Shown here in pieces: positions 20,005-48,122 of a stretch of DNA of 54,976 nucleotides. This DNA comes from Pseudomonadota bacterium (GTDB taxonomy: Bacteria > Myxococcota > JACRCW01 > JAFGSX01): NCBI GenBank assembly GCA_043821645.1, contig JBDRCO010000005.1, positions 1 to 54,976 of the forward strand, given 5' to 3'. Both the position numbers and the translations under genes were made by a program. The notes under the pieces were generated by a model. That model was not told the origin of the DNA. It saw nothing but the letters and a program-made list of their open reading frames with translations, and searched no databases. How positions within the stretch are numbered: the stretch's first letter is position 1; every line of letters starts with the position of its first letter.

Positions 20005-20025
20005 GCGCGCGCCCGTCGTCGCCGG

Positions 20026-30076: not shown

Positions 30077-30161
30077 GGCACCGCGAAAGGGAGTGCACAG
30101 ATCTCGATCACCCTGCCGAGGCGGCAACATGCCGCGAGCCCGGTCCAGATGCGCAGCCAGC

Positions 30162-30908: not shown

Positions 30909-30999
30909 TGAATCACGGCGAGCGTGCGCTCACCTTCTCGTAGGACGCGCCATCCTTGTCGAGGTGGACGTTCACAAGCTGCGCTGGAGTGCATGACAT

Positions 31000-31254: not shown

Positions 31255-31344
31255 GCCGTCTCCTGCCACAGGCTCGTGTGCTCGACGATGCTGACGAGGC
31301 CCACCACCCTGTCGTGGGCAGGCACACTGCGCCTCCATCGGTGC

Positions 31345-31360
31345 AGCACTATTCGCGCCA
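31345..31360 (-). promoter_or_regulatory. sigma54 -24/-12 promoter
   Basis: Minus strand TGGCGCGAATAGTGCT (GG-N10-GC). IHF-like AATCAAGGGGTTC at 31368-31380. Activator-site palindrome CATCAAATTGAAC at 31427-31439. Confidence 0.65.
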
Positions 31361-31485
31361 TCGAGGCGAACCCCTTGATTTGTTTCGCGCGAGATCCCAC
31401 AACAAGCCGACCCGGAGCGTCGACTCCATCAAATTGAACCCCAGTTCCTGGAGCGTTTCGCGCAGGGAGCGACAGGGCTGCAGAC

Positions 31486-31830
31486 CTAGCGCATGCAATA
31501 GGTCGAGCGCTGGTCGCTGTTGTCCTTGGTGACGGTCGCCGGCACGCCGTCGACCTGCTGGCAGGAGTAGCCCTCTTCACACTTCGGGTGATTTTCCCCG
31601 CAGGGGCGCGTGCAGTACTTCTGCTTCTTCAGGCAGATCCAGCCGTCATAGCGGTTGACTCCGCAATCGGCGTCGCAGGCCGTTCCCATGCTGTACTCGG
31701 ACCGATCCGTGCCGCTCATCAGCCAGGCAGTGAGGCCAGCACCGGCCACCGCTGCGACGAGCACGGCGATGATGAGAGTGCGCTTCTTGGATTGTGCGGA
31801 TTGCAGTTCGTTGACTTCCTGGCCTGCCAT
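31486..31830 (-). CDS. Small single-TM protein with an 8-Cys exported domain
   Basis: RBS AGGAGG. KKR followed by hydrophobic TLIIAVLVAAVAGAGLTAWL. Eight Cys in the C-terminal ~65 aa. Confidence 0.75.
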   Translation of the reverse strand: MAGQEVNELQSAQSKKRTLIIAVLVAAVAGAGLTAWLMSGTDRSEYSMGTACDADCGVNRYDGWICLKKQKYCTRPCGENHPKCEEGYSCQQVDGVPATVTKDNSDQRSTYCMR

Positions 31831-32053
31831 GTCAGTCCCCTCCTGCGCAGTGAGCCTTCACGTGCTGCGCGTGGCTGCTGTCTTCTTCTCTCGGCCTGGC
31901 CGGCTCCCCCTTAGTGAGAGGCTCCGCGGCCATCACCTCCAGCGTCCGTGTGCGTTTGACGTCCGTCCATCCCACGCTCCTGCCGGCCGTCTCATGCTGG
32001 GTGTTTCCTGTGCTGGCACGGACCAGCGTTGGGAACTCCCCCCCCGTCTGTGA

Positions 32054-32069
32054 AGCAGCTTTCGAGCCA
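32054..32069 (-). promoter_or_regulatory. sigma54 -24/-12 promoter
   Basis: Minus strand TGGCTCGAAAGCTGCT. Confidence 0.65.
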
Positions 32070-32145
32070 TGGCTGAAAACCCAGTAAAGATGGGACCTCG
32101 AGTTCGAGCGAACGTCACCACGGTCAGTTCGAAGCGCGCAATGTC

Positions 32146-32179
32146 CATCAATATGAACTGTCCACCCATCATAGTGAGT
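32146..32179. promoter_or_regulatory. Tandem activator-binding palindromes (putative UAS)
   Basis: CATCAATATGAAC (32146) and CATCATAGTGAGT (32167), 21 bp apart. Confidence 0.6.
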
Positions 32180-32359
32180 GGTCTGCAGTGGCTCATCCCG
32201 GATCCGCACGAACGGGATGGATCCGGCGAGGTCCGGACGCAGGGGGGCATCCCGCTGTCGAAAAAGCAGGGCGCCACAGAGCGGTCTTGGTCCCGATGAC
32301 CCTTGCGGTTGAGTCCAGGCGGGCCGCAACCGGAACCCATCAATACAGCCCGGCGCTTT

Positions 32360-33163
32360 TCAATATCCCACGCTATCTCGGCTGGGCTTCGAGGTCGCCG
32401 TCCCTTCCGACGGCTCGGGGTTGTCCCAGTACACCTGGCGCCCGTAGTACTCATACAGGCGTCCCTCGTACTCGCGGTTGATGGTTGCGGTCGCGTTCCA
32501 CCGGGGACTGCTCTTGATCGCCTGTCGCGACATCGCGACGAAGACTTTCTTCTCCTTCCGGCTGATGACGCTCGCCCAATGCGGGGCCACCAGCACCTTC
32601 TGGCCAAACCACCAGTTGCGGGTGTCGATCACCAGGTAGCGGATCTCCCAGGTCGCGTCGTCGACGATGAAGTCCGAGACATGCCCGATGGGCTCGTCTT
32701 CACCCTGGATGTGATAGCCGCGGACCTCGGCCGCACTGCGCACGCGGGAGCTGCTCGCCGAACTGTCGAGACGCTGGAGGACCGTCTGCCTGGCAGCCGG
32801 CGGGCGCGGACGAGGCCCGAGGCTGTAGCGATTCGAATCCTTCCAGTATGGCGAATAGCCGTAGTAGCTGAGGTATTCCAACTCGGCTGGCCGCGAGAGG
32901 GAATCGGCAAGGTCGACGGGCGGGCTGTGCTGGACCCTGTCCATGGTCAAGTCCACATGAAAGCGCTGGGTCTGCCACTCGACCGAGCCGAAGGAGATGG
33001 GCGAGATCAGGACTCGCTGCCCGTTGAGAAAAACGCCGGTCTCGACGACCAGGTAGCGAACGACCCAGCGCTCGTCGTCGAGTAAGAAGTTCACCACGGT
33101 TCCCATGTCGCCGTCTGTCGCGCTCACCGTGTAGCCCTCGAGATCTTTCAGGCATCGCAACAT
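32360..33163 (-). CDS. Tandem PRC-barrel domain protein
   Basis: Two repeats: GYTVSATDGDMGTVVNFLLDDERWVVRYLVVETG and GYHIQGEDEPIGHVSDFIVDDATWEIRYLVIDT. ATG 33163 follows GAGGA. Confidence 0.88.
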   Translation of the reverse strand: MLRCLKDLEGYTVSATDGDMGTVVNFLLDDERWVVRYLVVETGVFLNGQRVLISPISFGSVEWQTQRFHVDLTMDRVQHSPPVDLADSLSRPAELEYLSYYGYSPYWKDSNRYSLGPRPRPPAARQTVLQRLDSSASSSRVRSAAEVRGYHIQGEDEPIGHVSDFIVDDATWEIRYLVIDTRNWWFGQKVLVAPHWASVISRKEKKVFVAMSRQAIKSSPRWNATATINREYEGRLYEYYGRQVYWDNPEPSEGTATSKPSRDSVGY

Positions 33164-33218
33164 GGGCTGTTTCCTCGCTCCTCCCCGGCGAGAGGGACGC
33201 CCAAGCAGCCTCGCGAAG

Positions 33219-33234
33219 TGCACGAACAATGCCG
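33219..33234 (-). promoter_or_regulatory. sigma54 -24/-12 promoter
   Basis: Minus strand CGGCATTGTTCGTGCA, ~55 bp upstream of the PRC-barrel start. Confidence 0.55.
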
Positions 33235-33306
33235 CTGGGTTTGAAGCGAGAGGCGTCCCAAAAAACCCTGGTGTCCTTGTTTTCAGAATCGGCGGGCGCG
33301 GCGCTC

Positions 33307-33341
33307 CACCATTTTGATGCATGAACACAGTCATTTTGATG
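33307..33341. promoter_or_regulatory. Tandem activator-binding palindromes (putative UAS)
   Basis: CACCATTTTGATG (33307) and AGTCATTTTGATG (33329), 22 bp apart. Confidence 0.6.
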
Positions 33342-33699
33342 CCGCTGGACGGATGACACTTCGCTGGCCGCGGCAAGGCCTGACGGCCGTCGCGATGATC
33401 ACTGGACTTCCTGGCCGAGGTCGAGCCTGGCGCGGCAGTTGCTTGATTCACGTCCACCGCAGGGGGGATCGCTCATGCTGCTTGAAAACGCACCACGCGA
33501 CGGGTGCCAGGTCGAAGCAGACTCTCTGTGCGCGGCACCGAGCCTCATCGGGCATGCGCAGGCTGGCGACGTCAAGCCACCCGGCGACCGCCCGCTGCAG
33601 CCCTGTGATGTCCGCCATCTCGGTGGCACGGCGGCCTATCTGCACGGTCTGGATTCTCCAGCCGTGAACTGGATGCAACTCAGAGAAAGGACCGTCGTC

Positions 33700-33855
33700 A
33701 TGAGGCAAGCAGAAGCGGGCAAGGGCGGCTGGCTGGGTACCGGGGTGTGGGCCTGGACGGTCATCAGCCAGCTGGTGATGGTGATGCTGGTCGTGGTCTC
33801 CGCCAAGCTGCTCGACGACGGAAGCAGTGGTTCGCAAGCACTCCGCGAGGAATAA
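33700..33855 (+). CDS. Putative small membrane protein (51 aa)
   Basis: ATG follows GAAAGGA. One hydrophobic segment VWAWTVISQLVMVMLVVVSA. Ends 22 bp before the DUF302 gene. Confidence 0.4.
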   Translation: MRQAEAGKGGWLGTGVWAWTVISQLVMVMLVVVSAKLLDDGSSGSQALREE

Positions 33856-33877
33856 GCCCGGTCGAAAAGGGAGCCGC

Positions 33878-34264
33878 ATGTTGATCAAGGTATCCACGGA
33901 CAAGACAGTCAGTGAGACTGCCACGGCCTTGCATGAGGCCGTGCTCGCCAATCACTTCGGGGTATTGCAGATCCACAACCTGCAGCACACCCTGGCCAGC
34001 AATGGCGTCGACTTCACCCGTGAGTGCCTCATCTTCGAGGTCTGCCAGCCACAGCAGACCAAGCGGGTCCTCGACGAGGACATGGCTGTCTCCGCCGCAC
34101 TGCCAAGCCGCATCTCCATCTACGAGCAGGGTGGCGCAACAGTCCTGGCCACCCTGCAACCAACCACCTTGATGGCAATGTTCAACACACCACCTCCGCT
34201 CGAACTGATGCAGGACGTCGAGGACAGGGTGGTGAGAATTCTCAAGCAAGCGGCGGCCGCCTGA
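33878..34264 (+). CDS. DUF302 domain protein
   Basis: FGVLQIHNLQHTL, IFEVCQPQQ, AALPSRISIYE. RBS AAGGGAG. Confidence 0.85.
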   Translation: MLIKVSTDKTVSETATALHEAVLANHFGVLQIHNLQHTLASNGVDFTRECLIFEVCQPQQTKRVLDEDMAVSAALPSRISIYEQGGATVLATLQPTTLMAMFNTPPPLELMQDVEDRVVRILKQAAAA

Positions 34265-34343
34265 AGACTGAATGCGTCTCCGACCGAATCGCTTTGAGTG
34301 AGCTCGTGGTTGCTGGCAGGGGGCGCACAAGGCGCTTTTCTCC

Positions 34344-35051
34344 TCAAGCTTCGTTGAAATCGAGATCGACCATCAGCGGCAGATGGTCCGACAGGTCCTG
34401 CCAGGGCGCTCCGAACAACCGCTCGGCGCGACGCATCGCCAGATGGTGCAGGTAGACGCGATCCAGGTTGAACACGGGTCGGCGCGCATGCCAGGACCTC
34501 ACCTCGCGGGCACGGTGCGCGGCAAAAGCATTGCGGAACCCGAGCTGACCGGAGATGACCTGATCCAGGCTTCGCCGCCAGTCGTTGAAGTCCCCGGCGA
34601 GGATCACCGGCTCTCCCACAGGCACCGTCGCGGCGAGCAGCTCGGCAATCCGGCGCACCTGCTTCACGCGCTGCAGGTGGTTGAGCCCCAGGTGCACGTT
34701 CAGCACGTGCAGCGCACGACCGTCGACATCGAGACGGGTGTACAGCACGCCGCGCCGTTCGAGGCTGTTGGTGGACACGTCGTGGTTCTGGGATGCCAGC
34801 ACCGGGTAGCGGGTGAAGGTGGCATTGCCATGGTGGCCCAGCTTGCGCAGGCGATTGGCGCCGTAGCATGCGGGGAGACCGACCAGCGCGGCCAGCTCGT
34901 CGCTCTGCGCCACCCCCCGCCGGGTGTCGTGAAACACTTCCTGGCACAGCAGCAGGTCCACGTCGTGCACGGCCAGGGCAGTACCCAGGTCCGCAACCTG
35001 AAACGGGGCGCGGCCGCTGGCGCCCTTTCCCTTGCGGATGTTGTAGGTCAT
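34344..35051 (-). CDS. Endonuclease/exonuclease/phosphatase family protein (YbhP-like)
   Basis: TYNIRKG, LCQEV, HHGNA, ERRGVL, NVHLGL, AGDFNDW, LDRVY, LSDHLPL. A CTG start at 35060 is possible. Confidence 0.88.
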   Translation of the reverse strand: MTYNIRKGKGASGRAPFQVADLGTALAVHDVDLLLCQEVFHDTRRGVAQSDELAALVGLPACYGANRLRKLGHHGNATFTRYPVLASQNHDVSTNSLERRGVLYTRLDVDGRALHVLNVHLGLNHLQRVKQVRRIAELLAATVPVGEPVILAGDFNDWRRSLDQVISGQLGFRNAFAAHRAREVRSWHARRPVFNLDRVYLHHLAMRRAERLFGAPWQDLSDHLPLMVDLDFNEA

Positions 35052-35313
35052 GACGCGCAGCGGTTTTCTCTCCGTGGCGAGCGCAGCCGCCGGGCTGTCA
35101 TTTCAGGATGACTTGCCCACTTTTTCTCGGACCGCGTCCTTGCCGAAGCCGAGCGTCTGTTGAACAAGAGCGTAGAGTTTTTAGCTCGAATCCTCGGTCA
35201 ACTCCGGGCGGTCGCGTGCGATCGCGCCACGGGCCGAGCTTGCCTGGGCCTTGGCCATATCGTTCTTTGTCCCGGCCTGACGCTGGTACATGTCCCCCCG
35301 TCCTTCTGAACCT

Positions 35314-35484
35314 TCAGCGCTTCATGGCTTCCGCAGGCCTGCGCCAGGAGCCCTTGACGATGCGCACGAGGAGCAAGGCCACCGCAGCGGCGATCAGCAC
35401 GTGGATGTATCCGCCCAGGGTGTAGGCCGTGACCATTCCGATGACCCAGAGCAAGAGGAGAATGATGGCGATGGACCACAGCAT
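35314..35484 (-). CDS. lmo0937/DUF5670-family small membrane protein (56 aa; absent from the ORF track)
   Basis: Manual translation: MLWSIAIILLLLWVIGMVTAYTLGGYIHVLIAAAVALLLVRIVKGSWRRPAEAMKR. Confidence 0.85.
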   Translation of the reverse strand: MLWSIAIILLLLWVIGMVTAYTLGGYIHVLIAAAVALLLVRIVKGSWRRPAEAMKR

Positions 35485-35502
35485 GATCGCAGTTCCGTGA
35501 TG

Positions 35503-35778
35503 CTAGTTCTTCATGTCCTTGAAGGCGTGCTCGAGATCCTTCCATGCGCTGTCGACGCCGCCCCTCAAGGTTTGCCACTTCTCGCTGCCGGCGGCCTTGA
35601 GCTCGTCGATCTTCAATTGAGCCGAGTGGTACTTGGCCTGTAAATCACTGACGTGCCTGCGCCGAACAAACGTGGCATCGGCGCCGGCCGCATCCACCTT
35701 GGCCACGAGCGCATCGAGGGTCTCGCCCCAGTGCTTGAGCTGGGTCTCCAACCTGTCGATGTGGGCTTGCATATTCAT
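35503..35778 (-). CDS. Small coiled-coil protein (sll1863-like stress protein)
   Basis: IDRLETQLKHW...KIDELKAAGSEKWQTLRGGVDSAWKDLEHAF. RBS GAGGA. Confidence 0.8.
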   Translation of the reverse strand: MNMQAHIDRLETQLKHWGETLDALVAKVDAAGADATFVRRRHVSDLQAKYHSAQLKIDELKAAGSEKWQTLRGGVDSAWKDLEHAFKDMKN

Positions 35779-35855
35779 GAGCGTCCTCGTTGCGTTCTGG
35801 CCCGGCGGGCCGACGTGCACGGGTCCAGGACCGGCCACACGTCAGGGTCTGCAAG

Positions 35856-35871
35856 AGCAGCTTCCGGGCCA
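35856..35871 (-). promoter_or_regulatory. sigma54 -24/-12 promoter
   Basis: Minus strand TGGCCCGGAAGCTGCT. IHF-like AATCGAACAGTTG at 35889-35901. Confidence 0.7.
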
Positions 35872-35933
35872 GGGATGCGACTGAAAGAAATCGAACAGTT
35901 GCGTCCCGGACTGGCAGGTGTGCGGGCCCGGTC

Positions 35934-35968
35934 CATCAGGATGACGCCCTGTCGCCATCAGATCGACG
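35934..35968. promoter_or_regulatory. Tandem activator-binding palindromes (putative UAS)
   Basis: CATCAGGATGACG (35934) and CATCAGATCGACG (35956), 22 bp apart. Confidence 0.6.
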
Positions 35969-36086
35969 CAGAATGGGCGCCGGGGGATGGCTGGCGAGAA
36001 GGCACAGCGGCCCGGGTCGCGGGAGTCCAGAAACGCCAGCCTCGCGTCCGCCGGTGTGCGCCGTACCGTGCGCCGCCTGGGTCTGT

Positions 36087-36848
36087 TCACGCGTACAGCT
36101 CGCGGCGCTCGCAAGGCTCGGCCCCGCCATCATAGATGATTCGCATCTTCTTGATGAGCCGCAGCTCGAGCAGGCGAGCGCCCTCGCGACTCATATCGAG
36201 CTCGTCTCCGATCTCGCTCAGGGTTGCGGGATCGTCCCGGAGCAGGCGCTTGTGGATCACCACCTCGGCACGCGCGTCTCCAAGCTCGTCGAGGGACTTG
36301 AGGATCACCTGCCGCAACTGCCTGCGAACCTGCCGCTGCGACACCAGCGCTTCAGGTGTGCCGACCTCACTGGCCAGGTTGTTGCCGAGCGTCTGGTCCG
36401 AGTCCTCACCGATGGGTGCGTCGATCGAGACGGTGCGCAGGAGTGTCCGCCGCTCGGCGTGACCCCGACTCTGGCCCCCGGAATAGGCGACCGAGGCGGG
36501 TGCCGCGTACTGGTGCGAGCGCAACCAGGCCATGTGACGCTGCATGTGAGACCGTATCCAGAAGGCCGCGTAGGTCGAGAAGCGGACCTTGCGCTCCGGC
36601 TCAAAGGTCTGCGCCGCGCGCATCAGGGCCAGGCTGCCTTCCTGGATCAGATCGTCATAGCTGCCGCCGCGACGGGCATACGTGCGTGCGATGCGCTTGA
36701 CCAGGCCCAGGTGGCTCTCGACCAGAGCGTTGCGTGCGTCGACGTCGTCGAGTTCGCGGGCGCGGTAGCCGAGTTCAGCCTCGAGCTGCGAGTCCAGGCC
36801 ATGCGTCGCGCTGGCTCGTGCCGCGTTCTGTGTTCTGTGCCACAACAT
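36087..36848 (-). CDS. Alternative sigma-70 family factor, RpoH/sigma32-like, shortened
   Basis: Region 2 RNALVESHLGLVKRIA..DLIQEG..RFSTYAAFWIR. VSIDAPIGED. Region 4 TLSEIGDELDMSRE. ATG 36848 follows GGAG. Confidence 0.88.
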   Translation of the reverse strand: MLWHRTQNAARASATHGLDSQLEAELGYRARELDDVDARNALVESHLGLVKRIARTYARRGGSYDDLIQEGSLALMRAAQTFEPERKVRFSTYAAFWIRSHMQRHMAWLRSHQYAAPASVAYSGGQSRGHAERRTLLRTVSIDAPIGEDSDQTLGNNLASEVGTPEALVSQRQVRRQLRQVILKSLDELGDARAEVVIHKRLLRDDPATLSEIGDELDMSREGARLLELRLIKKMRIIYDGGAEPCERRELYA

Positions 36849-36899
36849 GAAAAGCTCCACACCGGCTGAGTTGATGAGCGGTTTGGACAGACCTGTCGA

Positions 36900-36915
36900 A
36901 GCAACAGTCGGGCCA
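36900..36915 (-). promoter_or_regulatory. sigma54 -24/-12 promoter of the sigma-factor gene
   Basis: Minus strand TGGCCCGACTGTTGCT, one mismatch to the consensus TGGCACG-N4-TTGCW. Confidence 0.8.
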
Positions 36916-37022
36916 GGGGTGCGAAACGGCGCGAAGACCGGCATGACAGCTTCTCTGCCCCCTGCGCGGGCCGAGTACTCACCCGCAATGGCGGTTCGCG
37001 GTCAGTTGGGGCTTGCGTATCC

Positions 37023-37056
37023 AATCAAATTGGAGTGCGGTGCAATCAGTTTGATG
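37023..37056. promoter_or_regulatory. Tandem activator-binding palindromes (putative UAS and autoregulatory operator)
   Basis: AATCAAATTGGAG (37023) and AATCAGTTTGATG (37044), 21 bp apart, ending 11 bp before the activator start codon. Confidence 0.65.
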
Positions 37057-37067
37057 GGGGGTGAGCG

Positions 37068-38714
<1,647 letters not shown>

Positions 38715-38889
38715 CAAGAAGCCTCCACACCGGCGCCGGGCCCATCCGGCCAGGCGTGTCCCCACCCTCCCCGAGAGGGTTCGACGGCTCCGGTTGCGGG
38801 CTGTGCCCCCGCGACAGCACCGGCCTGTTGTGGCATGCTGCGCCGGATCGCGCGACGCCCATGCCCCGTCGCCACCCGAGGACACAGCC

Positions 38890-40086
38890 ATGGCACACGA
38901 CACGATTCACTCCCTGATCGACACCCTCGCGGGCAAGAAGGCCCCCCTGTACGAGCAGGACTTCCTGCTGACCTGGGACAAGAGCCGCGACGAGCTCGAC
39001 GCGGTGCTGCTCACTGCCGAGATCCTCGAAGAGATGTGGAAGGCCAACATCTCGGCCCGGGTGTTCGACGGCGGCCTGGCCGTGAGCATCTTCCGCGACC
39101 AGTCCACCCGCACCCGCTTCAGCTTCGCCTCGGCCGCCAGCCTGCTGGGCCTGTCGGGCATGGACCTCGACGAGAAAAAGAGCCAGATCGCCCATGGCGA
39201 GACCGTGCGCGAGACCGCCAACATGATCTCGTTTCTCACCGAGGTGGTCGGCATCCGCGACGACATGTTCATCGGCCAGGGTCACGAGTACATGAAGGAG
39301 GTCGGCGACTCGATCACCGAGGGCCACCGCGCCGGCGTGCTGCCCCAGCGCACCACCCTGGTCAACCTGCAGTGCGACCGCGACCACCCGACCCAGAGCA
39401 TGGCCGACCTGCTGCACCTGCAAAAACACTTCGGCTCGCTGGACGCCCTGAAGGGCAAGAAGATCGCCATGACTTGGGCCTACTCGCCCAGCTACGGCAA
39501 GCCCCTGAGCGTGCCCCAGGGCATCATCACCCTGATGACCCGTTTCGGTATGAAGGTCTCGCTGGCCTACCCCAAAGGCTACGACCTGATGCCCGACCTG
39601 GTCGAGAAGTCCGGGCAGCACGCAAAGCACAGCGGCGGATCCTTCGAGGTCGTCGACAGCATGGCCGCGGCCTTTGACGGCGCCGACGTGGTGTATCCCA
39701 AGAGCTGGGCACCCTTCGAGGTGATGAAGGAGCGCACCGAGCTGCTGACCACGGGGCGTGGCAAGGAACTCGACGCCCTCGAGAAGAAGTGCCTGGAGCA
39801 GAACGCGGCGTTCAAAGGCTGGGAGTGCACCGACGCGCTGATGAAGAAGACCCAGGGCGGCAAGGCGCTGTACATGCATTGCCTGCCCGCGGACATCACC
39901 GACGTCAGCTGCAAGGCGGGCGAGGTCAGCAAGGATGTGTTCGAACGCTACCGGCTGCCCACGTACCACGAGGCGGGCCACAAGCCCTACGTGATCGCGG
40001 CCATGATGCTGACCAGCCGCTTCCAGGATCCCGCGGCGGTGCTGAAGAGCCTGGTCGAGCGCGGGCGGCCGCGACGTCTGGGCTGA
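38890..40086 (+). CDS. ygeW: Knotted carbamoyltransferase YgeW
   Basis: DFLLTW, FRDQSTRTRFS, SQIAHGETVRETANMISF, NLQCDRDHPTQSMADL, MTWAYSPSYGKPLSVPQG, YPKSWAP, YMHCLPADI match E. coli YgeW as recalled. Confidence 0.93.
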   Translation: MAHDTIHSLIDTLAGKKAPLYEQDFLLTWDKSRDELDAVLLTAEILEEMWKANISARVFDGGLAVSIFRDQSTRTRFSFASAASLLGLSGMDLDEKKSQIAHGETVRETANMISFLTEVVGIRDDMFIGQGHEYMKEVGDSITEGHRAGVLPQRTTLVNLQCDRDHPTQSMADLLHLQKHFGSLDALKGKKIAMTWAYSPSYGKPLSVPQGIITLMTRFGMKVSLAYPKGYDLMPDLVEKSGQHAKHSGGSFEVVDSMAAAFDGADVVYPKSWAPFEVMKERTELLTTGRGKELDALEKKCLEQNAAFKGWECTDALMKKTQGGKALYMHCLPADITDVSCKAGEVSKDVFERYRLPTYHEAGHKPYVIAAMMLTSRFQDPAAVLKSLVERGRPRRLG

Positions 40087-40096
40087 GGCCGCCCCG

Positions 40097-42016
40097 GTGC
40101 GACGATCGGCACCTTCCTGTGTCACCTTCCTGATCTGCTCTGTGGTCGCACAGTCGGGTTGCGACTGCGGTGGCACTCCTATCGCAGATGCTTCCCGCAA
40201 CGACCTGGGCATCCTGCTCGATGCCGCGAGCAGTGACGTCCTGGTCAGCGACGCACCGGCCACAGACCGCGGCGGTGACGCGGCGACGTGGGTGGACAGC
40301 GCGGCACCCGGGGACGCCTCCATACCGGACCTGTCCGCGGCAGATCGTTCTGCGCCGGACGCGGCCAGCCCGGTGGATGGCCACGCAGGCCTTGACACCC
40401 CGGCACCAGATTCTGCCATCGCAGACGCAGGTAGCACGGACCTCGCTGCAGCGGATGTCACGGCCCGCGATGCAGCCCCCTCTTCCGACGCCACTTCAGA
40501 CGCCGGAACCTGTGCGACCTGCTGGCGCAGCGCGCTCTACCCCGGGGACTGGACCCCAGCCTTCACCGACAACGAGGGGCGCTTTCTGCACGATTTTTCA
40601 TACGCGGGCTATCGCAACGGCGAGCCGCCTCCCGACGTGAGCGGACCCGTGGTCGACGTGGTGGCAGATCACGGCGTGGATGCCACGGGACAGAGCGATG
40701 CCACGGCCGCCATCCAGGCCGCCATTGCCGCGGTGCAGGGCGCGGGCGGCGGCGTGGTGTGGTTCCCGACGGGGCTGTATCGCATCGACGGCACCCTGGA
40801 AGTCACATCCTCCAACGTGGTGCTGCGGGGTGCGGGTGCCGACGACAGCACACTGCACTTCACCCTCGCCGTGGGAATGAGCAACCGCGCCCACCTGACC
40901 CTGCGCGGCAACGTCCAGCAAGGCGCCGACCTGCTGCTGACCAGCGACGGCCAGAACCGGGGCTTCACCGTGCAGGTGGCAGACGCCAGCTCATTGGCGC
41001 CAGGTGACGACGTGAGCCTGGGCTGGGTGATCACGCCCGCGTTCATCAACGACCACGCCATGACCGGCACCTGGACCGCCTTCAACGGCACCTGGCGCCC
41101 CTTTTTCCGGCGCCAGGTGGTGGCGGTGGACACCAGCAGCACACCCCACGTCGTCACCCTGGACGTGCCCCTGCGCTACAACGCCCTGGTGCGCGACCAG
41201 GCCAGCCTGCGCCGGGAGACGGGCTACCTGCACGAGGTCGGCGTCGAGCACCTGGGCGTGAGCAACGCCGTGACCTGGGACGACGCCTGGACCAACACCC
41301 GCGTGCACGCCATCGACCTCAACGGCGTGGCCGACGGCTGGCTGCGCGACGTGCATTCTGTTGCCTCACCCGGCATCAGCGGCGGCTACCACCTGCAGAG
41401 CGGCGGCTTCTACCTGCTGCAGAGCAAGCGCATCACGGTGGACCACTGCCAGCTCGCCAGGGCGCAGAATCGCGGCGGCGGCGGCAACGGCTACCTGTTC
41501 GAGATCTCCAAATCCAGCGAGGTCCTCGTCGTCGACAGCACGGGCCTGGACGGCCGCCACAACTTCATCCAGAACTGGGACTTTGGCACCACGGGCTGCG
41601 TTTTTTTGCGCGTCAGCTCGAGCGGCTCGCGCACCTTTGGCGGCACCTGGGACCCCATCGGCCTGCCCGCCTACTGCGAGTACCACCACTCGCTGGCCAC
41701 GGCCAACCTCGTCGACAGCAGCTCGTTCGCTGACGGCTGGTACGGCGGCAATCGAGGCACAGAGAGCACGGGCGCCGGCCACACCGCGACCCAGAATGCC
41801 TACTGGAACAACGACGGCGCCGGCCGCATCCGCAGCTACGCCTTTGGCTGGGGCTACATCATCGGCCACGGTGGCCTCACCGTGGACAGCTCGCTGCTCT
41901 CGCTCAGCGGCGCCGGTACCTCGCCCGAGGACTGGATAGAGACCGCACCCGCGGGCAAGCAGCTGCAGCCCGCCTCTCTGTACGAGGATCAGCGTCGGCG
42001 TAGGCTCGGACACTGA
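40097..42016 (+). CDS. Secreted right-handed beta-helix (pectate-lyase superfamily) protein with D/A-rich linker
   Basis: Signal-like N-terminus with GCDC, low-complexity DA linker, DFSYAGY, DATAAIQAAI..GGVVWFPTGLY, SNVVLRGAG. Confidence 0.75.
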   Translation: MRRSAPSCVTFLICSVVAQSGCDCGGTPIADASRNDLGILLDAASSDVLVSDAPATDRGGDAATWVDSAAPGDASIPDLSAADRSAPDAASPVDGHAGLDTPAPDSAIADAGSTDLAAADVTARDAAPSSDATSDAGTCATCWRSALYPGDWTPAFTDNEGRFLHDFSYAGYRNGEPPPDVSGPVVDVVADHGVDATGQSDATAAIQAAIAAVQGAGGGVVWFPTGLYRIDGTLEVTSSNVVLRGAGADDSTLHFTLAVGMSNRAHLTLRGNVQQGADLLLTSDGQNRGFTVQVADASSLAPGDDVSLGWVITPAFINDHAMTGTWTAFNGTWRPFFRRQVVAVDTSSTPHVVTLDVPLRYNALVRDQASLRRETGYLHEVGVEHLGVSNAVTWDDAWTNTRVHAIDLNGVADGWLRDVHSVASPGISGGYHLQSGGFYLLQSKRITVDHCQLARAQNRGGGGNGYLFEISKSSEVLVVDSTGLDGRHNFIQNWDFGTTGCVFLRVSSSGSRTFGGTWDPIGLPAYCEYHHSLATANLVDSSSFADGWYGGNRGTESTGAGHTATQNAYWNNDGAGRIRSYAFGWGYIIGHGGLTVDSSLLSLSGAGTSPEDWIETAPAGKQLQPASLYEDQRRRRLGH

Positions 42017-42107
42017 TCCCGGGACCCGCGCCGGCAGCGCCTGCACCTGGCCATCCCATTCATGACGACGGAATCGCGCGAAGGACGAGGCGAGCCTGCC
42101 GCCCTGA

Positions 42108-43421
42108 TCACGGTGCCAGCCAGATGGGTGCCGAGGTCAACACGTCACCGTCGAGCTCGATGGCGCGGGCGATCATGTAGACGGGTTGCGACACCGGCAG
42201 GTCGAAGTCGCCGCTGCAGCTGAGCTGTCCGCCGCACGCAAAGGTCGCAAGCAGGGCCTGCATGGGGCCGTACAGCTCGATGCGATCGAAGCCGTCGTCC
42301 GCGTCCGCCGCCTCGGCATGAAGCTGCACCTCGCTCACCCCGGCAACGATGGAGCCCATCCAGCAGGTGTCTGCACGCAGGGCGATGGACGCGTTGGCGT
42401 CGCCGCTGGCGAAGCTCCGTCGCTGGCGCAAGGCCTGGGCCAGCTCGTCACGGGTCAAGGCCGCCAGGTATAGCCCTGTGCGGTGGGCGTTGGCAGTGCC
42501 CCAGTTGGCGCTGTGGTTGTCCTGGTTCCAAGTGGGCGCCACATGCCAGCCCTCCTCGAGCGCCTCGTTGAGCACGGCCCAGGCATCGGCACCGGTGTTG
42601 AACTCGAGCAGGTTCATCTTCTCGTCGACAGCCGCGTCGTAGGCAAAGTTGTTGAAGCTCTGCGAGGTGGCGTCGCGCGGGTGGTTGAACTGGGTGACGC
42701 AGGTGGCGCAGGCCTTGACCGAGTCGTAGTAGTCCGACAGCCGCAGCTGTATCGCCGGGAACAGATCGTCATTGAGGAACACGTTGGAGTGGCCGGCGGG
42801 TCCAATGATGGACAGGGCCGCGCCGTATTCGTAGCCGCACATCGCCAGGTAGCTGCCGTTGACGGTGACCGCGTCCGCCTCGCTGCGGCACTCGTCATAC
42901 TCCCCCGAGGGGTCGCCGGTGAGCCGGTACAGCTGCTCCACGTGATCGGTGGGCATGAAGAAGTCCAGACCGCCCTGATCGCGGGCGTAAGCAAAGGCCT
43001 CGGCATAGCTCCCCTCGCCGTCCGAGGCGCTGGTGTGGGCATGGATATTGCCCCAGTACGGGACGAAGTGTCCCTCGACGCAGCCGGTGACAGGACCGAG
43101 TGCAGCGTCGGCAGCGCTGGCGGCGTCGGGGCCCTGCGCCGCATCCTGGGTCTGCCCCTGATCGGCAGCGCCGCTGTCAGACCTCCCCTCGTCGGGTGCC
43201 GTGGCATCCGGTCGCGCGACATCGAGCTGCGCCGAATCAGGGACAGCAGCGTCCACCAGGGGCCCATTGTCCACGCTGCCGACGTCTGCGGGGCTGCTGG
43301 CGTCGGCGCTGGCATCCACGACCAGCACAGTGCTGTCCTTGCCGCCCAGCAGCACCTCGTTGTCGGGGCAGGCTCCCAGCAGACTGGACAGCCAGAGGAT
43401 GCAAACAGCTCTCGAATTCAT
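42108..43421 (-). CDS. Lipoprotein, PHP-like (CehA/McbA-type) metallohydrolase
   Basis: Lipobox LGAC. WGNIHAHTSASDG, TDH, GYE, GHSNV, FNHP, QDNH. Only the 3' part of ORF 42108..45587 is taken as coding. Confidence 0.8.
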   Translation of the reverse strand: MNSRAVCILWLSSLLGACPDNEVLLGGKDSTVLVVDASADASSPADVGSVDNGPLVDAAVPDSAQLDVARPDATAPDEGRSDSGAADQGQTQDAAQGPDAASAADAALGPVTGCVEGHFVPYWGNIHAHTSASDGEGSYAEAFAYARDQGGLDFFMPTDHVEQLYRLTGDPSGEYDECRSEADAVTVNGSYLAMCGYEYGAALSIIGPAGHSNVFLNDDLFPAIQLRLSDYYDSVKACATCVTQFNHPRDATSQSFNNFAYDAAVDEKMNLLEFNTGADAWAVLNEALEEGWHVAPTWNQDNHSANWGTANAHRTGLYLAALTRDELAQALRQRRSFASGDANASIALRADTCWMGSIVAGVSEVQLHAEAADADDGFDRIELYGPMQALLATFACGGQLSCSGDFDLPVSQPVYMIARAIELDGDVLTSAPIWLAP

Positions 43422-43724
43422 GCGCACCACCGCGATCTCGAACACAGGGATCCCACATTCATGGTCGCCACGGAGGAATTGGGGAAGTTCTTTTTCGCCC
43501 CGGCGCGCGTCCGTCATCGGGCTCGCACGCTGCGCGTCCATGAAAAATGGCCGTCCCCGGCAGCATACCGCAGCGCGGCAGATCCTCCCTGGTCTCGCGA
43601 CCCTGCGCGACAACGTGAAATTTCGCACAGTTAATTCTTGCGCGACTGCGCCATTGGTCTGGCATCCCTGATAAAGCAAAGCGGCGGTCGGGGTCCTCCC
43701 GGCAAGGCCAAGGAGGGAGACATC

Positions 43725-45311
43725 ATGCGTCGTTACGGAATGCTGGCGGTCGTGCTCGGGAGCTGGAGCTTGATGGGTGCGCTGTGCAACCTCACACCAG
43801 ATCAGCAGGAGAAGATCTGCGACCTCGGCCACGGCGTGATCTGCGATGGCCTGGACCGCACCGAGGTGGACCTGTGCGCAGGCACCAACACCAAGCTCGA
43901 GCGCTGCGAGCACGCGTGCAGCATGGGTGAGTGCGTGGCCTGCGCGCCCGAGGCCGGACTCACCTGCGACGGCAACACGGTGTACGAGATCGATAGCTGC
44001 GGAACCCTGGGCAGCCAGGTCGAGACCTGCACGGGGGGTTGCAGCCGGGGCGCCTGCATAGGCTCGAGCTGCAACGCCGGCGGCCAGCGCGTGTGCGTGG
44101 GCAACAACGTGTACCGGGCCGACTCCTGCGGCAACATCGAGGGCTTTGACCAGGCCTGCCCCCAGGGCTGCGAGAACGGCGCCTGCCTGGACTGCACGCC
44201 CAACAGCTACATCACCTGCTACGACGGCGACGTGTACAACCTGGACTCCTGCTTCGGGCTGGGCGAGAAGTCGCAGGACTGTGGCGCGGATCTGTGCCAG
44301 GCAACGGCCACCTCGGTGGCCTGCGCCTCGGGTCTGAACTGCACGCTCAATGACACCATCACCTGCTTCGACGACAACATGCACTGGGTCGACAGCTGTG
44401 GCAACGTGCAGACCGCCGTGCAGGAAGCGTGTGGCAGTGGCTGCGATCAGAGCGGCTGCCGCGCCTGCTCGCGGGTGCCGGTGGGTACCACCTGCGTCGG
44501 CAACGAGCGCCACGTGATGATGGGTGGCTGCTCCGGCCAGACCAACATCGTCGGCGATCTCCTCGAGACCTGCGCCCATGGCTGCTCGCGCGGCGCCTGT
44601 CTGCCCGAGGGCTGCAACCCGGTGGGCCGGGTGTGCCAGGGCGACAACGTGCACGTGCTGGACTCGTGCAACAACGTCGGCGCGAGCCTCGAGACCTGCC
44701 CGGACGTGTGCGAGAACGGCTTCTGCGCCCAGTCCTGCACTCCGAGAGCGAGCGCGGCCTGCGACAGCGCGCAGGGCGACCTGTACTGGTACGACTCCTG
44801 TGGCAACAAGGGCGACCTCAAACAGGACTGCGACATCGAGATGGGCTGTGACGTCGAGCTCAACGCCTGCTGGAGCAGCTCGTGCACGCCCAACGTCTAC
44901 ACCACCTGCGTCGACAACAACGTGTACTGGATGGACTCCTGCTACGTGACCGGCGAGCTCAAGGAAGTGTGCTCCGGTGGCAGCTGCGTCCAGGGCAGTG
45001 GCACGGCCTCGTGCAGCACCTCGACCGGCAAGACCTGCACCTGTACCTCGGGCTGCTCGCTGTACGACGGCAGCAGCTATCTGGGTGAGTGCGACGCCTG
45101 CATCGTCCCGCACTACGACGGCAGCTGCGACACCATGATCATGAGCGACTGCCAGAGCCTGTGCTCGCCCAGCTTCACCTGCAGCAGCAACATGCTGGTG
45201 TACCAGGGCTACATGACCCTGGGCTCGTGCAGCGACTGCTCGAGCTGCACCAGCCCGCCCTGCTCGACCTGCTACGATCCGTCGCTGTGCTCCGAGTACT
45301 GCGCGCCGTAA
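43725..45311 (+). CDS. Exported Cys-rich tandem-repeat protein (~9 six-Cys repeats)
   Basis: RBS AGGAGG, signal peptide, repeats of C-x7-C-x-(G/D)N-x-Y-xx-DSCG-x8-C-xx-GC-xx-GAC. Confidence 0.85.
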   Translation: MRRYGMLAVVLGSWSLMGALCNLTPDQQEKICDLGHGVICDGLDRTEVDLCAGTNTKLERCEHACSMGECVACAPEAGLTCDGNTVYEIDSCGTLGSQVETCTGGCSRGACIGSSCNAGGQRVCVGNNVYRADSCGNIEGFDQACPQGCENGACLDCTPNSYITCYDGDVYNLDSCFGLGEKSQDCGADLCQATATSVACASGLNCTLNDTITCFDDNMHWVDSCGNVQTAVQEACGSGCDQSGCRACSRVPVGTTCVGNERHVMMGGCSGQTNIVGDLLETCAHGCSRGACLPEGCNPVGRVCQGDNVHVLDSCNNVGASLETCPDVCENGFCAQSCTPRASAACDSAQGDLYWYDSCGNKGDLKQDCDIEMGCDVELNACWSSSCTPNVYTTCVDNNVYWMDSCYVTGELKEVCSGGSCVQGSGTASCSTSTGKTCTCTSGCSLYDGSSYLGECDACIVPHYDGSCDTMIMSDCQSLCSPSFTCSSNMLVYQGYMTLGSCSDCSSCTSPPCSTCYDPSLCSEYCAP

Positions 45312-45317
45312 TTTCTT

Positions 45318-45585
45318 AGGGGGCGGTCGGCCCGCCCCCTCTGCCGACGGAGTGAATCCGTCGGCATTCACCCCTGGCAGCGCTGACAAGGACACCTCGC
45401 TGCGCTGACGCTCGCTCGGTGACGTCGATGAATCGGGCGTCCAGCTTGGAGATTGGCGGTCGGCCCGCCCCCTCTGCCGACGTGCTGGTTGGGTGAATGG
45501 CGGCCGGACCTGCGCCGGCCGACAGAGGGGCTGCCCGACAGTCCCTCGAGAAATGCAGCATCCGTCGGCATTCACCCCTGGCAGC
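45318..45585. repeat. Cluster of REP-like hairpins and direct repeats
   Basis: 28-bp repeat at 45322 and 45455. 26-bp repeat at 45356 and 45560. Stems AGGGGGCGG/CCGCCCCCT and TGCCGACGGA/TCCGTCGGCA. Confidence 0.75.
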
Positions 45586-45614
45586 ATCGATATTTCCTAA
45601 CAGAGGGGAACAGA

Positions 45615-45750
45615 GGGGACTGGCACTTACTATTACATTTTTTTGTGCTGCAATAACAATTAATTATGTCATTAATTGTATAGTGTAAAAGTGAGGCATG
45701 GACGTAGAAATCCACTGCGCAAGAAATAGTAATGGTAAGTGCCAGTCCCC
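45615..45750. mobile_element. 136-bp AT-rich MITE/REPIN-like element, copy 1
   Basis: 22-bp terminal inverted repeats GGGGACTGGCACTTAC(T/C)ATTAC (21/22). Differs from copy 2 at two positions. Confidence 0.75.
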
Positions 45751-45943
45751 TGTTCCCAGTCCCCTGTTCCCCTGCTCTTGGGGGGTACTTGCTCTCACAC
45801 ATTGTTCTTCATTAGTTAGGAAATATGACCTGACATACAGGAGAGCCATTCGCCTCGGATTGTGACCTCAGCGAAGCCTTCCGGAAGTGGTCAGGGTACG
45901 GGCCTGTCCGCTCCCTCGAGGACCGAATGAATGCCACCGGGCT

Positions 45944-46489
45944 CTAGAAGTAATAGCGGATGCCTATGATGCCATGCCAGGCGAAGCCCAGGCCGGGGAG
46001 CACTGCCAGACCAGGGGCGACCTCGAGAAAGACATCCAGGGGCAGGTTGGTGATGTTCCAGCCCAACCCACCGGTGAAATGCAGGTCAGCCCACACCGGT
46101 ATGTTGGTATAGGGATGGCCGAAGCCATAGCCAAGACCACCCAGAAACCCCAGGCCGATGCCGCCGCCCACATAGGGGTAGAGAGAGCCCGCCTCACCCA
46201 GGGAGAAGTTGGCCACCGAGAGAACGTAGTCCAGGTGCGTACTCAGCCAGCCGTGGCCGCCGAAGCCAACGCCGAAGGACAGGCCCGAGGAGTCGGAGAG
46301 GTAGTACTTGCCGGTCAGCCCGGTGGGGCCACCCAGCGACAGGCCCAGACCCAGCGGGCCGCCAGAGCTGCGAGACCCGGCGCGCGGCAGGCCATTTCCG
46401 GGAGCCTTGTCTCCTTCGTTCTGGGCGAGAGCGCCGGTGGAGACCAGCAAGCCGGTCACCAGCAGCGAGAGGATCGTGTAGTTCTTCAT
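45944..46489 (-). CDS. Small outer-membrane beta-barrel protein (DUF3996-like)
   Basis: Signal peptide, GLGLSLGGPTGLTGKYYL, amphipathic strands, C-terminal GIRYYF. Confidence 0.8.
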   Translation of the reverse strand: MKNYTILSLLVTGLLVSTGALAQNEGDKAPGNGLPRAGSRSSGGPLGLGLSLGGPTGLTGKYYLSDSSGLSFGVGFGGHGWLSTHLDYVLSVANFSLGEAGSLYPYVGGGIGLGFLGGLGYGFGHPYTNIPVWADLHFTGGLGWNITNLPLDVFLEVAPGLAVLPGLGFAWHGIIGIRYYF

Positions 46490-46628
46490 GCGGGATTCCT
46501 TTTTTCCTGGGCTGCCCTGGGCAGCGTGCGACGAGGTGGGAGCGTGAGCCCGTAGCTATCCGGGCCGGTACAGAGAACGCAGAATGTTTTTTCCACCGGC
46601 TCGACATCGTTTGCAGCGAGCCATGGGA

Positions 46629-47408
46629 TCAATCGCGCCTGGCGACCTGGACAGTCATGTTGTTCTCCATGCTCGTCACACCACGAATGTCGTTGACGAG
46701 CTTGCTGACCAGGGCCTTCTCGGCCGCATTCTTAGCGGGCCCTGACACGGTCACCTTGCCGCTGCGGGTGTCGACCATGGTTTTCAACATGCTGGTCGAG
46801 CGATGGATCAACAGGGCGGCCCTGACCTGCGCGGTGATGGAAGCGTCATCGATCGTCTGCGCCGCAGTGCGGTCCACGGGGAGGTGCGTCGTGGCCACCT
46901 TCATGTTGTTCTTCAACCCGGTCACTCCGTCGACATCGCGGGCGTATTCACCGGTCAGCTCCTTCTGTGCCAGGCTCGACGCTTCGCCAGACAGGGTCAC
47001 CACCCCGCGCGACACCGCGACGTGGGCCGCTTCGGCGTCGACCTTGCGATGAAACGTGAGGACCAGCGCGACCTTTCGTCGCAGCTTCTCGTCAGCGGTG
47101 AGGGTGGCGACCTCGGCCTTGGTGAGCAGTCGATTGTCGACGCTGGTGACACCCGGCAGCCCTGCCGCCGTATCCTGGGCCAGGTCCTTGTGTGATTCCT
47201 CGCTCACGCTCCCCTTCAGGGTCACCACGCCGCTGCTGGACTCGATCTGGATCGCGTCGTCATTGAGATAGGTTGTGTAGACAAAGCTTTTTTTGAACGA
47301 GGACTCGATCCTGTCGTCATTCTGTGATGCCTGCAGCGGCGCGCTGGAGAGCATCATGGCGGCCGTGGCAGCCCCGACCGCGAATCCGGGCATGAGCTTC
47401 CTTTTCAT
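46629..47408 (-). CDS. Periplasmic triple-BON domain protein (OsmY-like)
   Basis: Signal peptide and three repeats (GVVTLKG..GVTSVDNRL; GVVTLSG..GVTGLKNNM; DDASITAQV..GKVTVSG..GVTSMENNM). Confidence 0.9.
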   Translation of the reverse strand: MKRKLMPGFAVGAATAAMMLSSAPLQASQNDDRIESSFKKSFVYTTYLNDDAIQIESSSGVVTLKGSVSEESHKDLAQDTAAGLPGVTSVDNRLLTKAEVATLTADEKLRRKVALVLTFHRKVDAEAAHVAVSRGVVTLSGEASSLAQKELTGEYARDVDGVTGLKNNMKVATTHLPVDRTAAQTIDDASITAQVRAALLIHRSTSMLKTMVDTRSGKVTVSGPAKNAAEKALVSKLVNDIRGVTSMENNMTVQVARRD

Positions 47409-47457
47409 TGTGTGACCTCTTCTTGGTTGTTGATGCCAGAGTGTATCGACGCCATGC

Positions 47458-47473
47458 AGCGGCTCATGCGCCA
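47458..47473 (-). promoter_or_regulatory. Possible sigma54 promoter (proximal, BON gene)
   Basis: Minus strand TGGCGCATGAGCCGCT (GG-N10-GC, weak -12). Confidence 0.45.
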
Positions 47474-47593
47474 GCTGTGACCGGACTACCTCTGGGCTCG
47501 AGAGCGCAACTCTACCCGTTCAGGTCGCTGGCTCCTGAAAGCGCGCATGACCAGGCTCAGGTCGGGGACCTGCAGCTCCGAGCGGAGTGATAT

Positions 47594-47609
47594 TGCAGCT
47601 TCCAGGCCA
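47594..47609 (-). promoter_or_regulatory. sigma54 promoter (distal, BON side)
   Basis: Minus strand TGGCCTGGAAGCTGCA, 14/16 identical to the 35856 promoter. Confidence 0.65.
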
Positions 47610-47826
47610 TGAGCGAGGTGCGAGCACATTCGAACATCGGCACCGTGGGCAGCTTTCGTCCGGCCGTCACACCGACGACGTGACGGCCGCCTCGCAACCG
47701 ACCTCGCTACTCGGCCCCACAGGCAGCTCGCGATCCACACACCTGACCCGTTGAGAGATGAGCACCTTGCTGCTCGGGGAGGTCGACGGGCAGGAGCCCT
47801 GTCGCGTTCCACGAGGCAGGCTCTCC

Positions 47827-47860
47827 AACCAGATTGATTGCGTGCCGCATCAGATCGATG
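47827..47860. promoter_or_regulatory. Tandem activator-binding palindromes (putative UAS)
   Basis: AACCAGATTGATT (47827) and CATCAGATCGATG (47848), 21 bp apart, between divergent genes. Confidence 0.6.
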
Positions 47861-48017
47861 GGTTCGTCGACCGGGCCGGGCCTCGTCGGCGAAGAGAGCA
47901 CTTCGCCACAGACCCATTCGCTTCAGCTCGATGCAGAGGCGCTTGCTCTTGCTGCAACGCACGTTGCGGAGGCAATGGTTGCGCTGCATCCAGCTGAAAC
48001 GAGGTGCCTGGGCGAGG

Positions 48018-48033
48018 TGGTCCGGAATGTGCT
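48018..48033 (+). promoter_or_regulatory. Possible sigma54 promoter of the ice-binding protein gene
   Basis: TGGTCCGGAATGTGCT (GG-N10-GC), ~90 bp upstream of the start. Confidence 0.5.
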
Positions 48034-48122
48034 TGGTCATGGCCGAGGGTCCGCCTGCCTCTGGCGAGCCGCACAGCCCGTAGCCCGTGCCACACAGAAC
48101 AAGAAGAACGAGGAGTGACAGC

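Follow-up and report, generated by a model that had tools for sequence, protein, structure and literature searches.

A predicted sigma-54 regulon of stress and envelope genes under a XylR/DmpR-like activator with a remodelled sensor pocket

The DNA analysed here, referred to as the window, is the whole of contig JBDRCO010000005.1 (C5; 54,976 nucleotides) of assembly GCA_043821645.1, from an uncultured bacterium deposited as a member of the Pseudomonadota and placed by GTDB in the Myxococcota. The assembly comprises 7.07 Mb in 140 contigs with 67% G+C and is 94.7% complete. The window contains a gene for a one-component sigma-54 activator and, in the surrounding intergenic regions, five pairs of 13-bp palindromic sites, one single site of the same type and a set of -24/-12 promoters. 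A block of mostly minus-strand genes (20026–36848) is followed by the activator gene (37068–38714) and a gene for a YgeW carbamoyltransferase, and a second module occupies 45944–49538. We propose, with a probability of roughly 0.75, that the 37068 protein is the cognate enhancer-binding activator of a compact sigma-54 regulon of stress and envelope genes; it very likely binds the paired sites, and the output of the regulon is likely to be stress protection. The features are listed in Table 1.

The 11 sites and eight GG-N10-GC elements described in a first-pass annotation of the window were all located where that annotation placed them, and each of the sites lies between annotated genes. The consensus given with them, CATCA-N3-TGATG, is identical to none of the 11, its sole exact match (39525) being inside ygeW; the sites are nearer to WTCA-WWW-TGAW, which is approximately how the logos of the orthologous sites read. 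Six of the promoters hold, but those at 33219 and 47458 fall short of the 5th percentile (12.1) for the training promoters, and a stronger plus-strand promoter beside the 33307/33329 pair had been overlooked. The resulting seven promoters, on the minus strand at 31345, 32054, 35856, 36900 and 47594 and on the plus strand at 33427 and 48017, are separated from their sites by gaps of 61, 65, 75, 85, 106, 156 and 216 bp. The two sites resembling those of integration host factor (IHF) that had been noted are also present, as 13-mers with one mismatch to the IHF consensus (31368–31380 and 35889–35901).

The literal 13-mer gave 42 matches with at most two mismatches as compared with 19.3 ± 4.8 after shuffling, a count reached in none of 100 shuffles; the -24/-12 pattern by itself shows no enrichment in the window (80 versus 70.9 ± 8.6). 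A matrix built from the 11 sites places the five pairs at ranks 1–5 in the assembly, which is a circular test; when one pair at a time was left out, the score of the held-out pair was reached by just 2–6 pairs assembly-wide, including itself and the training pairs. Matrices trained exclusively on 71 enhancer-promoter units of other genomes place the five pairs at ranks 1, 2, 3, 5 and 8 genome-wide and the seven site-plus-promoter units at ranks 1–7, with scores of 37.9–53.9 and a next best score of 30.3. No unit on the other contigs of this 94.7% complete assembly exceeds 30.3, as compared with 37.9 for the weakest unit in the window.

The wiring was compared across the best 80 of 554 confirmed orthologous loci, which come from at least eight phyla (Myxococcota, Acidobacteriota, Planctomycetota, Methylomirabilota, Thermodesulfobacteriota, Gemmatimonadota, Eiseniibacteriota and Schekmaniibacteriota). 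The orthologs are mostly 70–80% identical, which points to horizontal spread. In the matrix scan of genome and orthologous loci that the first-pass annotation had proposed, the pairs are above background and conserved at the orthologous activators: the window-trained matrix finds 141 pair matches in 77 of the 80 loci, as against 1–6 in ten shuffles, with a spacing peak at 21–22 bp (among 138 non-redundant pairs, 22 bp in 64, 21 in 52, 20 in 15 and 23 in 7). A pair lies 30–65 nt before the activator start codon in 67 of the 78 loci with enough upstream DNA and is accompanied in 55 of these 67 by a divergent -24/-12 element (consensus as quoted in PMC3063778). Of 135 cases, 80 have a promoter scoring at least 9 that faces away from the pair and four have one that faces it, as compared with 5% of random positions. 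Distances cluster at 61–65 bp (72 promoters), and lesser clusters lie around 53 and 97 bp. Apart from an IHF-like element (41 of 71, versus 19.6 in shuffled sequence), the spacer varies. The gene opposite the activator changes freely among loci while the pair stays at the activator start. The motif tracks the activator family rather than the target genes. This comparative sequence evidence strongly supports the reality of the regulon, and with the pair at the start in 67 of 78 loci and the window units at ranks 1–7, the earlier assignment of the 37068 protein as cognate factor stands up well.

Table 1. Positions of the predicted regulatory elements, genes and repeats in the window. Promoter scores are from ortholog-trained matrices where stated; counts of loci are homologs within 10 kb of the 80 orthologous activators.
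Feature	Position	Strand	Remarks
Site pair, 21 bp apart	37023–37056		directly before activator start; predicted enhancer for promoter 36900; top-ranked pair genome-wide
-24/-12 promoter	36900–36916	-	106 bp from 37023 pair; score 16.7, ortholog-trained matrix
Site pair, 22 bp apart	35934–35968		coordinate check, leave-one-out and ortholog-trained matrices
IHF-like site at position conserved in orthologous units	35889–35901	+	one mismatch; 8.7 bits, ortholog-trained matrix
-24/-12 promoter	35856–35872	-	61 bp from 35934 pair; score 19.9
Site pair, 22 bp apart	33307–33341		possibly used in both directions
-24/-12 promoter	33427–33443	+	85 bp from 33307 pair; score 16.2
Weak, uncertain -24/-12 element	33219–33235	-	72 bp from 33307 pair; score 5.6
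Site pair, 21 bp apart	32146–32179		coordinate check and ortholog-trained matrices
-24/-12 promoter, best score in window	32054–32070	-	75 bp from 32146 pair; score 21.8
Single site	31427–31439		20.0 bits; no partner at 20–23 bp (partner score negative)
IHF-like 13-mer, one mismatch	31368–31380	-	orientation opposite to conserved spacer element; 1.8 bits at canonical position
-24/-12 promoter	31345–31361	-	65 bp from single site 31427; score 18.0
Site pair, 21 bp apart	47827–47860		between divergent BON and ice-binding genes
-24/-12 promoter	47594–47610	-	216 bp from 47827 pair, atypical distance; score 20.1
Weak GG-N10-GC element	47458–47474	-	probably chance; score 4.9
-24/-12 promoter	48017–48033	+	156 bp from 47827 pair; score 14.9
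One-component sigma-54 activator, 548 aa	37068–38714	+	Pfam: XylR_N and V4R sensor, AAA+ with GSFTGA, Fis-type helix-turn-helix
Sigma-70-family factor	36087–36848	-	best matches RpoH/sigma-32, below cut-off
sll1863-family stress response protein	35503–35778	-	NCBIfam NF052504, over cut-off; in 6/80 loci
lmo0937-family (DUF5670) membrane peptide	35314–35484	-	probably co-transcribed with 35503 gene
Endonuclease/exonuclease/phosphatase protein	34344–35051	-	possibly end of 35856 transcript
126-aa reading frame of no known family	33475–33855	+	no homolog in 80 loci, so may not be a gene
DUF302 protein	33878–34264	+	family search
PRC-barrel protein	32360–33163	-	family search
114-aa Cys-rich protein, no known family	31486–31830	-	hydrophobic N-terminal segment
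84-aa protein of no known family	31000–31254	-	in 8/80 loci
Pirin-family protein	30162–30908	-	in 37/80 loci
Cardiolipin synthase-like phospholipase D	28847–30076	-	best match ClsB, below cut-off; in 3/80 loci; operon link inferred
2918-aa GH94/glucoamylase protein	20026–28782	-	in 8/80 loci; operon link inferred
Triple-BON (OsmY-like) protein	46629–47408	-	family search
181-aa signal-peptide protein ending YYF, no family	45944–46489	-	probable outer-membrane barrel; downstream of BON
Ice-binding-like lipoprotein with Big_5 domains	48123–49538	+	in 10/80 loci
REPIN-like 159-nt repeat, inverted ends	45597–45755	+	left of second module
Second 159-nt repeat copy	49828–49986	+	94% identical, same orientation; right of second module

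The activator comprises a XylR_N domain (E 6.5e-28), a V4R domain (30.4 bits, slightly below the Pfam cut-off of 31), an AAA+ domain (PF00158, E 9e-70) and a Fis-type helix-turn-helix (PF02954, residues 499–539). Its GSFTGA loop corresponds to GAFTGA in 70 of 81 aligned rows. It is the sole XylR_N match among about 38 activator-type ATPase matches in the assembly, which also has rpoN and seven IHF/HU-family matches; 3068 proteins, sister groups included, match the sensor at E ≤ 1e-20. The model of the sensor has a predicted local distance difference test score (pLDDT) of 89, and its best structural matches are PoxR, MopR and DmpR (template-modelling scores of 0.7–0.8; 26–30% identity). The Cys-Glu-Cys-Cys zinc ligands are predicted to be C135, E158, C161 and C169, each retained in 79 of 80 orthologs. 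Seven pocket residues, G96, P97, V108, W128, Y155, A156 and Y159 in DmpR numbering, are common to XylR, PoxR, MopR and DmpR (bioRxiv 2021.01.17.427014). On sequence alignment to DmpR, from which all pocket mappings are taken, W128, Y155 and A156 are replaced by L114, L141 and M142 in the window activator and the other four are kept. The equivalent of Trp128 is Trp in none of the 80 orthologs, that of Tyr155 is Leu in 79, and Ala is absent from the common states at the Ala156 position; the window activator lacks the full aromatic pocket that characterizes the XylR/DmpR subfamily.

The predicted targets in the window include stress and envelope genes and no aromatic catabolic operon. The first-pass annotation had described the targets in these terms, and the comparison bears this out, except that the sigma factor it included is not conserved: a sigma-70 protein is found near the activator in 1 of 80 orthologous loci, at 33% identity. 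The window sigma factor is 61% identical to a paralog at C1:84291–84992, both being short and RpoH-like, and its gene looks like a local capture rather than a conserved member of the regulon. The pirin, cardiolipin synthase and glucan synthase genes, also named as targets, have no enhancer of their own but lie on the same strand behind the single-site promoter 31345, and they likely belong to the regulon through read-through from it as an operon. The product at 20026–28782 is, from its domain set, what we take to be a cyclic beta-1,2-glucan synthase type. A simple scan of the minus strand between 31345 and 20026 detected no intergenic terminator-like site or sigma-70 promoter, all the terminator-like matches being inside genes. 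Reading frames of 30 residues (30076–30165) and 23 residues (28779–28850) link the three genes, each overlapping the stop of the preceding gene and the start of the following one by four bases. The 84-residue protein at 31000 is a recurring first gene behind such promoters and the first reading frame at several orthologous loci. Three RNA runs from the same study, which yielded only short contigs, mostly from other organisms, contain contigs that match 30935–31138 and 31730–31985 without difference; both are inside predicted transcripts and give a weak hint of transcription, library DNA being a possible source. A short minus-strand reading frame with an internal stop at about 35100–35260 may be a remnant of the CsbD type.

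The first reading frame was called behind 106 ortholog promoters, of which 85 were scanned after near-duplicates had been excluded, and 54 of the 85 first genes have a Pfam family. These include pirin (8), chaperones (6; GroES, GroEL, GrpE and Hsp20), SPFH (5), ice-binding (4), DUF5670/lmo0937 (3), DUF4398 (3), YflT (2) and PRC-barrel (2) proteins, and one each of BON, universal stress protein (USP), superoxide dismutase (SOD), DUF3309 and DUF2934. By our own classification 38 of the 54 are of the stress or envelope type; among the remaining 16 are signalling proteins, a glycosyltransferase and a radical SAM enzyme. No aromatic ring-hydroxylating or ring-cleavage pathway enzyme is present among the 54. 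In the near-complete genome G032, about ten units occur over about 165 kb in the stretches examined, and none in shuffles, before genes for Hsp20, OmpA/DUF4398, SpoIIAA-like, GGDEF and mechanosensitive-channel-type proteins; one of these stretches (L130) duplicates units that the count already includes.

The pair before the activator has a further feature. Its spacer contains TAnnnT, a -10-like sequence, in 45 of 67 activator-proximal pairs; the corresponding counts are 4 of 44 for pairs elsewhere and 11 of 67 when the opposite strand is read. The second site abuts the ribosome-binding site. A divergent layout with self-repression is described for XylR at Pr/Ps (PMC3253710). In the orthologs the activator-proximal pair may cover the activator's own sigma-70 promoter, suggesting autorepression. 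In the 37023 pair the -10-like sequence is the degenerate TGCGGT, and a sigma-70 promoter scan found no sites in 19800–39000 and 45500–50100. No sigma-54 promoter through which the activator could activate its own gene was found here, the best plus-strand element upstream of this pair scoring 0.

Activators of the XylR/DmpR type are known to sense aromatic pollutants and to govern catabolic operons, and their sites are probably spaced about three helical turns apart rather than the two given in the first-pass annotation. XylR (Pu and Ps/Pr of the TOL plasmid), DmpR/CapR (Po), PoxR, MopR, MphR and EtpR have the XylR_N-V4R-AAA+-helix-turn-helix architecture, the sensor fold and the zinc ligands in common with the window activator. 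They differ from it in sensor sequence (26–30% identity, with the equivalents of Trp128, Tyr155 and Ala156 replaced in the window) and in having one or two promoters for catabolic operons, in contrast to seven promoters for stress and envelope genes. The window activator would work like XylR and DmpR yet depart from them in its pocket and its targets. Two upstream sites, IHF and a -24/-12 promoter are likewise present in XylR-type systems (PMC3900584); the sequence and spacing of XylR/DmpR sites were not found in the main texts consulted. The output genes resemble those of the RpoS, SigB and EcfG/PhyR regulons, which control OsmY/BON, ClsB-like synthase, YflT, lmo0937-family and PRC-barrel genes, but those regulons depend on an alternative sigma-70-family factor whereas the window is predicted to use sigma-54, a one-component activator and -24/-12 promoters. 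The sigma-54 stress regulons of Desulfovibrio vulgaris (DVU3305, DVU1419, DVU3381 and PspF type) are likewise small and local but are under two-component regulators or PspF, with no V4R or XylR in the main text of the report (PMC4641369). OrpR is a further case for comparison in D. vulgaris. A survey of sigma-54 regulons makes, in the text consulted, a single, general mention of V4R (PMC12316311). No prior description of such a regulon was found in the literature searched, which took in few subscription papers.

In a quick tree of 48 selected rows, five sister activators that retain the pocket Trp (L109, L110, L112, L114 and L141) form one side of a branch with a Shimodaira-Hasegawa-like approximate likelihood ratio test (SH-aLRT) value of 99. 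These sisters are from the same phylum, have the same architecture, are about 50–59% identical to the window activator and also have TCA-N3-TGA pairs before the start, but their recognition helix has Leu or Val in place of the Ser, Ala or Thr found mostly in the group of the window activator. Near the four that were scanned, neither a pair nor a site-plus-promoter unit passes the window matrices; by eye, their pairs are related but the flanks are shifted, and the genes opposite the sisters scanned are LigB or YceI genes. Of the Trp-pocket sisters L109, L112, L113, L141, L110 and L111, which face LigB or YceI genes and have paired sites of their own, several seem, by eye, to be without GG-N10-GC at the usual place.

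We suggest the following mechanism. Dimers of the activator would occupy the 13-bp palindromes, about WTCA-WWW-TGAW, whose conserved pairing at 21–22 bp would place them on one face of the DNA, and a bend of the IHF type would deliver them to the sigma-54 polymerase at -24/-12, typically 61–65 bp away. Looping, IHF bending and ATP-driven opening are established for sigma-54 and for this family. A signal at the zinc-containing XylR_N-V4R domain would, as in the family, free the ATPase, and the seven promoters would then express some 14 genes that protect the envelope and defend against osmotic stress and protein damage. The pair before the activator would also cover its own sigma-70 promoter, giving XylR-like autorepression, as the orthologs suggest (degenerate here). 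The cassette would move between phyla and swap the gene opposite the activator, the slot here being filled by the RpoH-like sigma paralog. Because the sensor pocket is remodelled, a small hydrophobic, membrane-perturbing compound is favoured over a simple phenol as the likeliest signal, although we regard this choice as evenly balanced. A more tentative extension, which we consider doubtful, is that the V4R-type sensor reads membrane or thiol damage and that, via sigma-54, it forms a portable route for a general stress response in at least eight phyla, with the enhancer-promoter unit copied before new genes and with capture of the RpoH-like factor creating a cascade from sigma-54 to a sigma-32-type factor.

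Several observations weigh against a stress regulon wired in this way. The 80 loci are related, so that the counts overstate independence, and no pair is present at the activator start in 11 of 78. Within the window, an IHF-like element at the conserved position scores strongly for only one of the seven promoters, and the gaps of 106, 156 and 216 bp are outside the conserved 61–65 bp; together these suggest drift in this genome. A strict pair-plus-promoter pattern matches 2 of 61 genomes, namely the two whose activators are closest, in each case no more than about 1.7 kb from where the activator gene starts, and has no match in the window's own genome, where the spacings have drifted. A looser pair-only IUPAC pattern matches 116 of 301 genomes, many without a close activator, and was dropped as a presence test as too noisy. 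Some first genes are for signalling proteins (kinases, CheB/R and other activators), and 31 of 85 have no family. Pirin, the commonest neighbour, has a quercetinase-type domain, leaving room for an aromatic link, and L108, a relative with the pocket Leu, faces a cytochrome P450, so that the pocket Leu alone does not mark stress targets.

The last two points bear on the alternative that survives best, namely that the wiring is as proposed but responds to one particular aromatic or xenobiotic compound, its output being tolerance to that class of compounds. The sensor fold is the same as in PoxR, MopR and DmpR; the position of His100 is Tyr in the window activator (His in 45 and Tyr in 24 of 80 orthologs), which is the state of XylR (PMC7264223); sister activators face LigB, YceI or P450 genes; and in 37 of 80 loci a pirin gene neighbours the activator. 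However, three of the seven shared pocket residues (bioRxiv 2021.01.17.427014) are replaced across the group, and chaperones, SOD, USP, YflT, BON and a mechanosensitive-channel-type protein figure among the targets; we judge this trigger rather unlikely. Of similar or slightly lower standing is a sensor that reads redox or thiol state through its cysteines and zinc site, as reported for the V4R domain of the archaeal MsvR (PMC3729527). Beyond the zinc ligands, Cys139 is present in 67 and Cys198 in 69 of 80 orthologs, and SOD, pirin and chaperones are among the targets; set against this, 12 of the 80 have Ser instead of Cys139 and 7 have Ser instead of Cys198, and the remaining pocket is tightly conserved, as expected of a ligand site.

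It is rather improbable that the regulon is here a partly decayed import, with real relic sites and several promoters that no longer respond. The atypical spacings and weak IHF scores would fit such decay, as would the single site 31427, the weak 33219 element, the degenerate -10 sequence, the apparently interrupted small reading frame near 35100–35260, the position of the second module between repeats and the G+C content of 62–65% in most of 30–36 and 44–50 kb versus 67% genome-wide. On the other hand, the 548-residue frame of the activator is intact, six of the seven strong promoters score 16–22 bits, the gaps of 75, 85, 106 and 156 bp are consistent with 63 bp plus whole helical turns, and the two exact RNA-library matches, weak as they are with library DNA possible, lie here. 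That the palindrome is bound by another factor, of the FNR/CRP type or one of the about 38 activator-type ATPases, with a coincidental link to 37068, is very improbable: its half-site resembles halves of FNR boxes, but the pair is fixed at the activator start across phyla while the opposite gene varies, and sisters with a changed recognition-helix residue have, by eye, related but shifted pairs.

Outside the regulon, purine and pyrimidine genes, among them a PurC-PurE fusion (6217–7611), and a gene for a pyridoxal phosphate (PLP) enzyme occupy 1–20 kb. The PLP enzyme gene (18526–20004) and the YgeW carbamoyltransferase gene (38890–40086) are on the same strand and bracket an 18.7-kb block; they may once have been neighbours, marking its insertion point. 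A 528-residue Cys-rich repeat protein without Pfam family (43725–45311, plus strand) is divergent from a probable lipoprotein with, by eye, a PHP-like motif (42108–about 43650, minus strand). The AT-rich 159-nt repeats bracket the BON/ice-binding module as direct repeats, and recombination at such an element may have brought this module in; ends of the repeat also bracket one gene on C32, which by eye we take to be a REP-associated tyrosine transposase. Several near-miss -24/-12 words at 47600–47820 and 47953, between the 47827 pair and its distant promoters, are possibly decayed promoter copies. Additional high-scoring single sites at 39525, 36144 and 34162 were rejected as lying inside genes, and another at 34287 as resembling one end of a second, dispersed family of inverted-end repeats about 130 nt long (C20:24871–25030 and at least 30 blastn matches in the assembly), a degenerate end of which (34281–34300) lies between the DUF302 and endonuclease/exonuclease/phosphatase genes.

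The regulon looks like an unstudied stress-response switch. Its activator branch is large and spread over many uncultured phyla, and the XylR/DmpR machinery appears to be used there for a stress regulon, a role that usually belongs to alternative sigma-70 factors. With site, spacing and promoter distance so sharply defined, the regulon would be readable from genomes; it could be rebuilt in Escherichia coli from one gene and a 120-bp fragment, making the signal directly testable, and the activator system may yield a new biosensor part.

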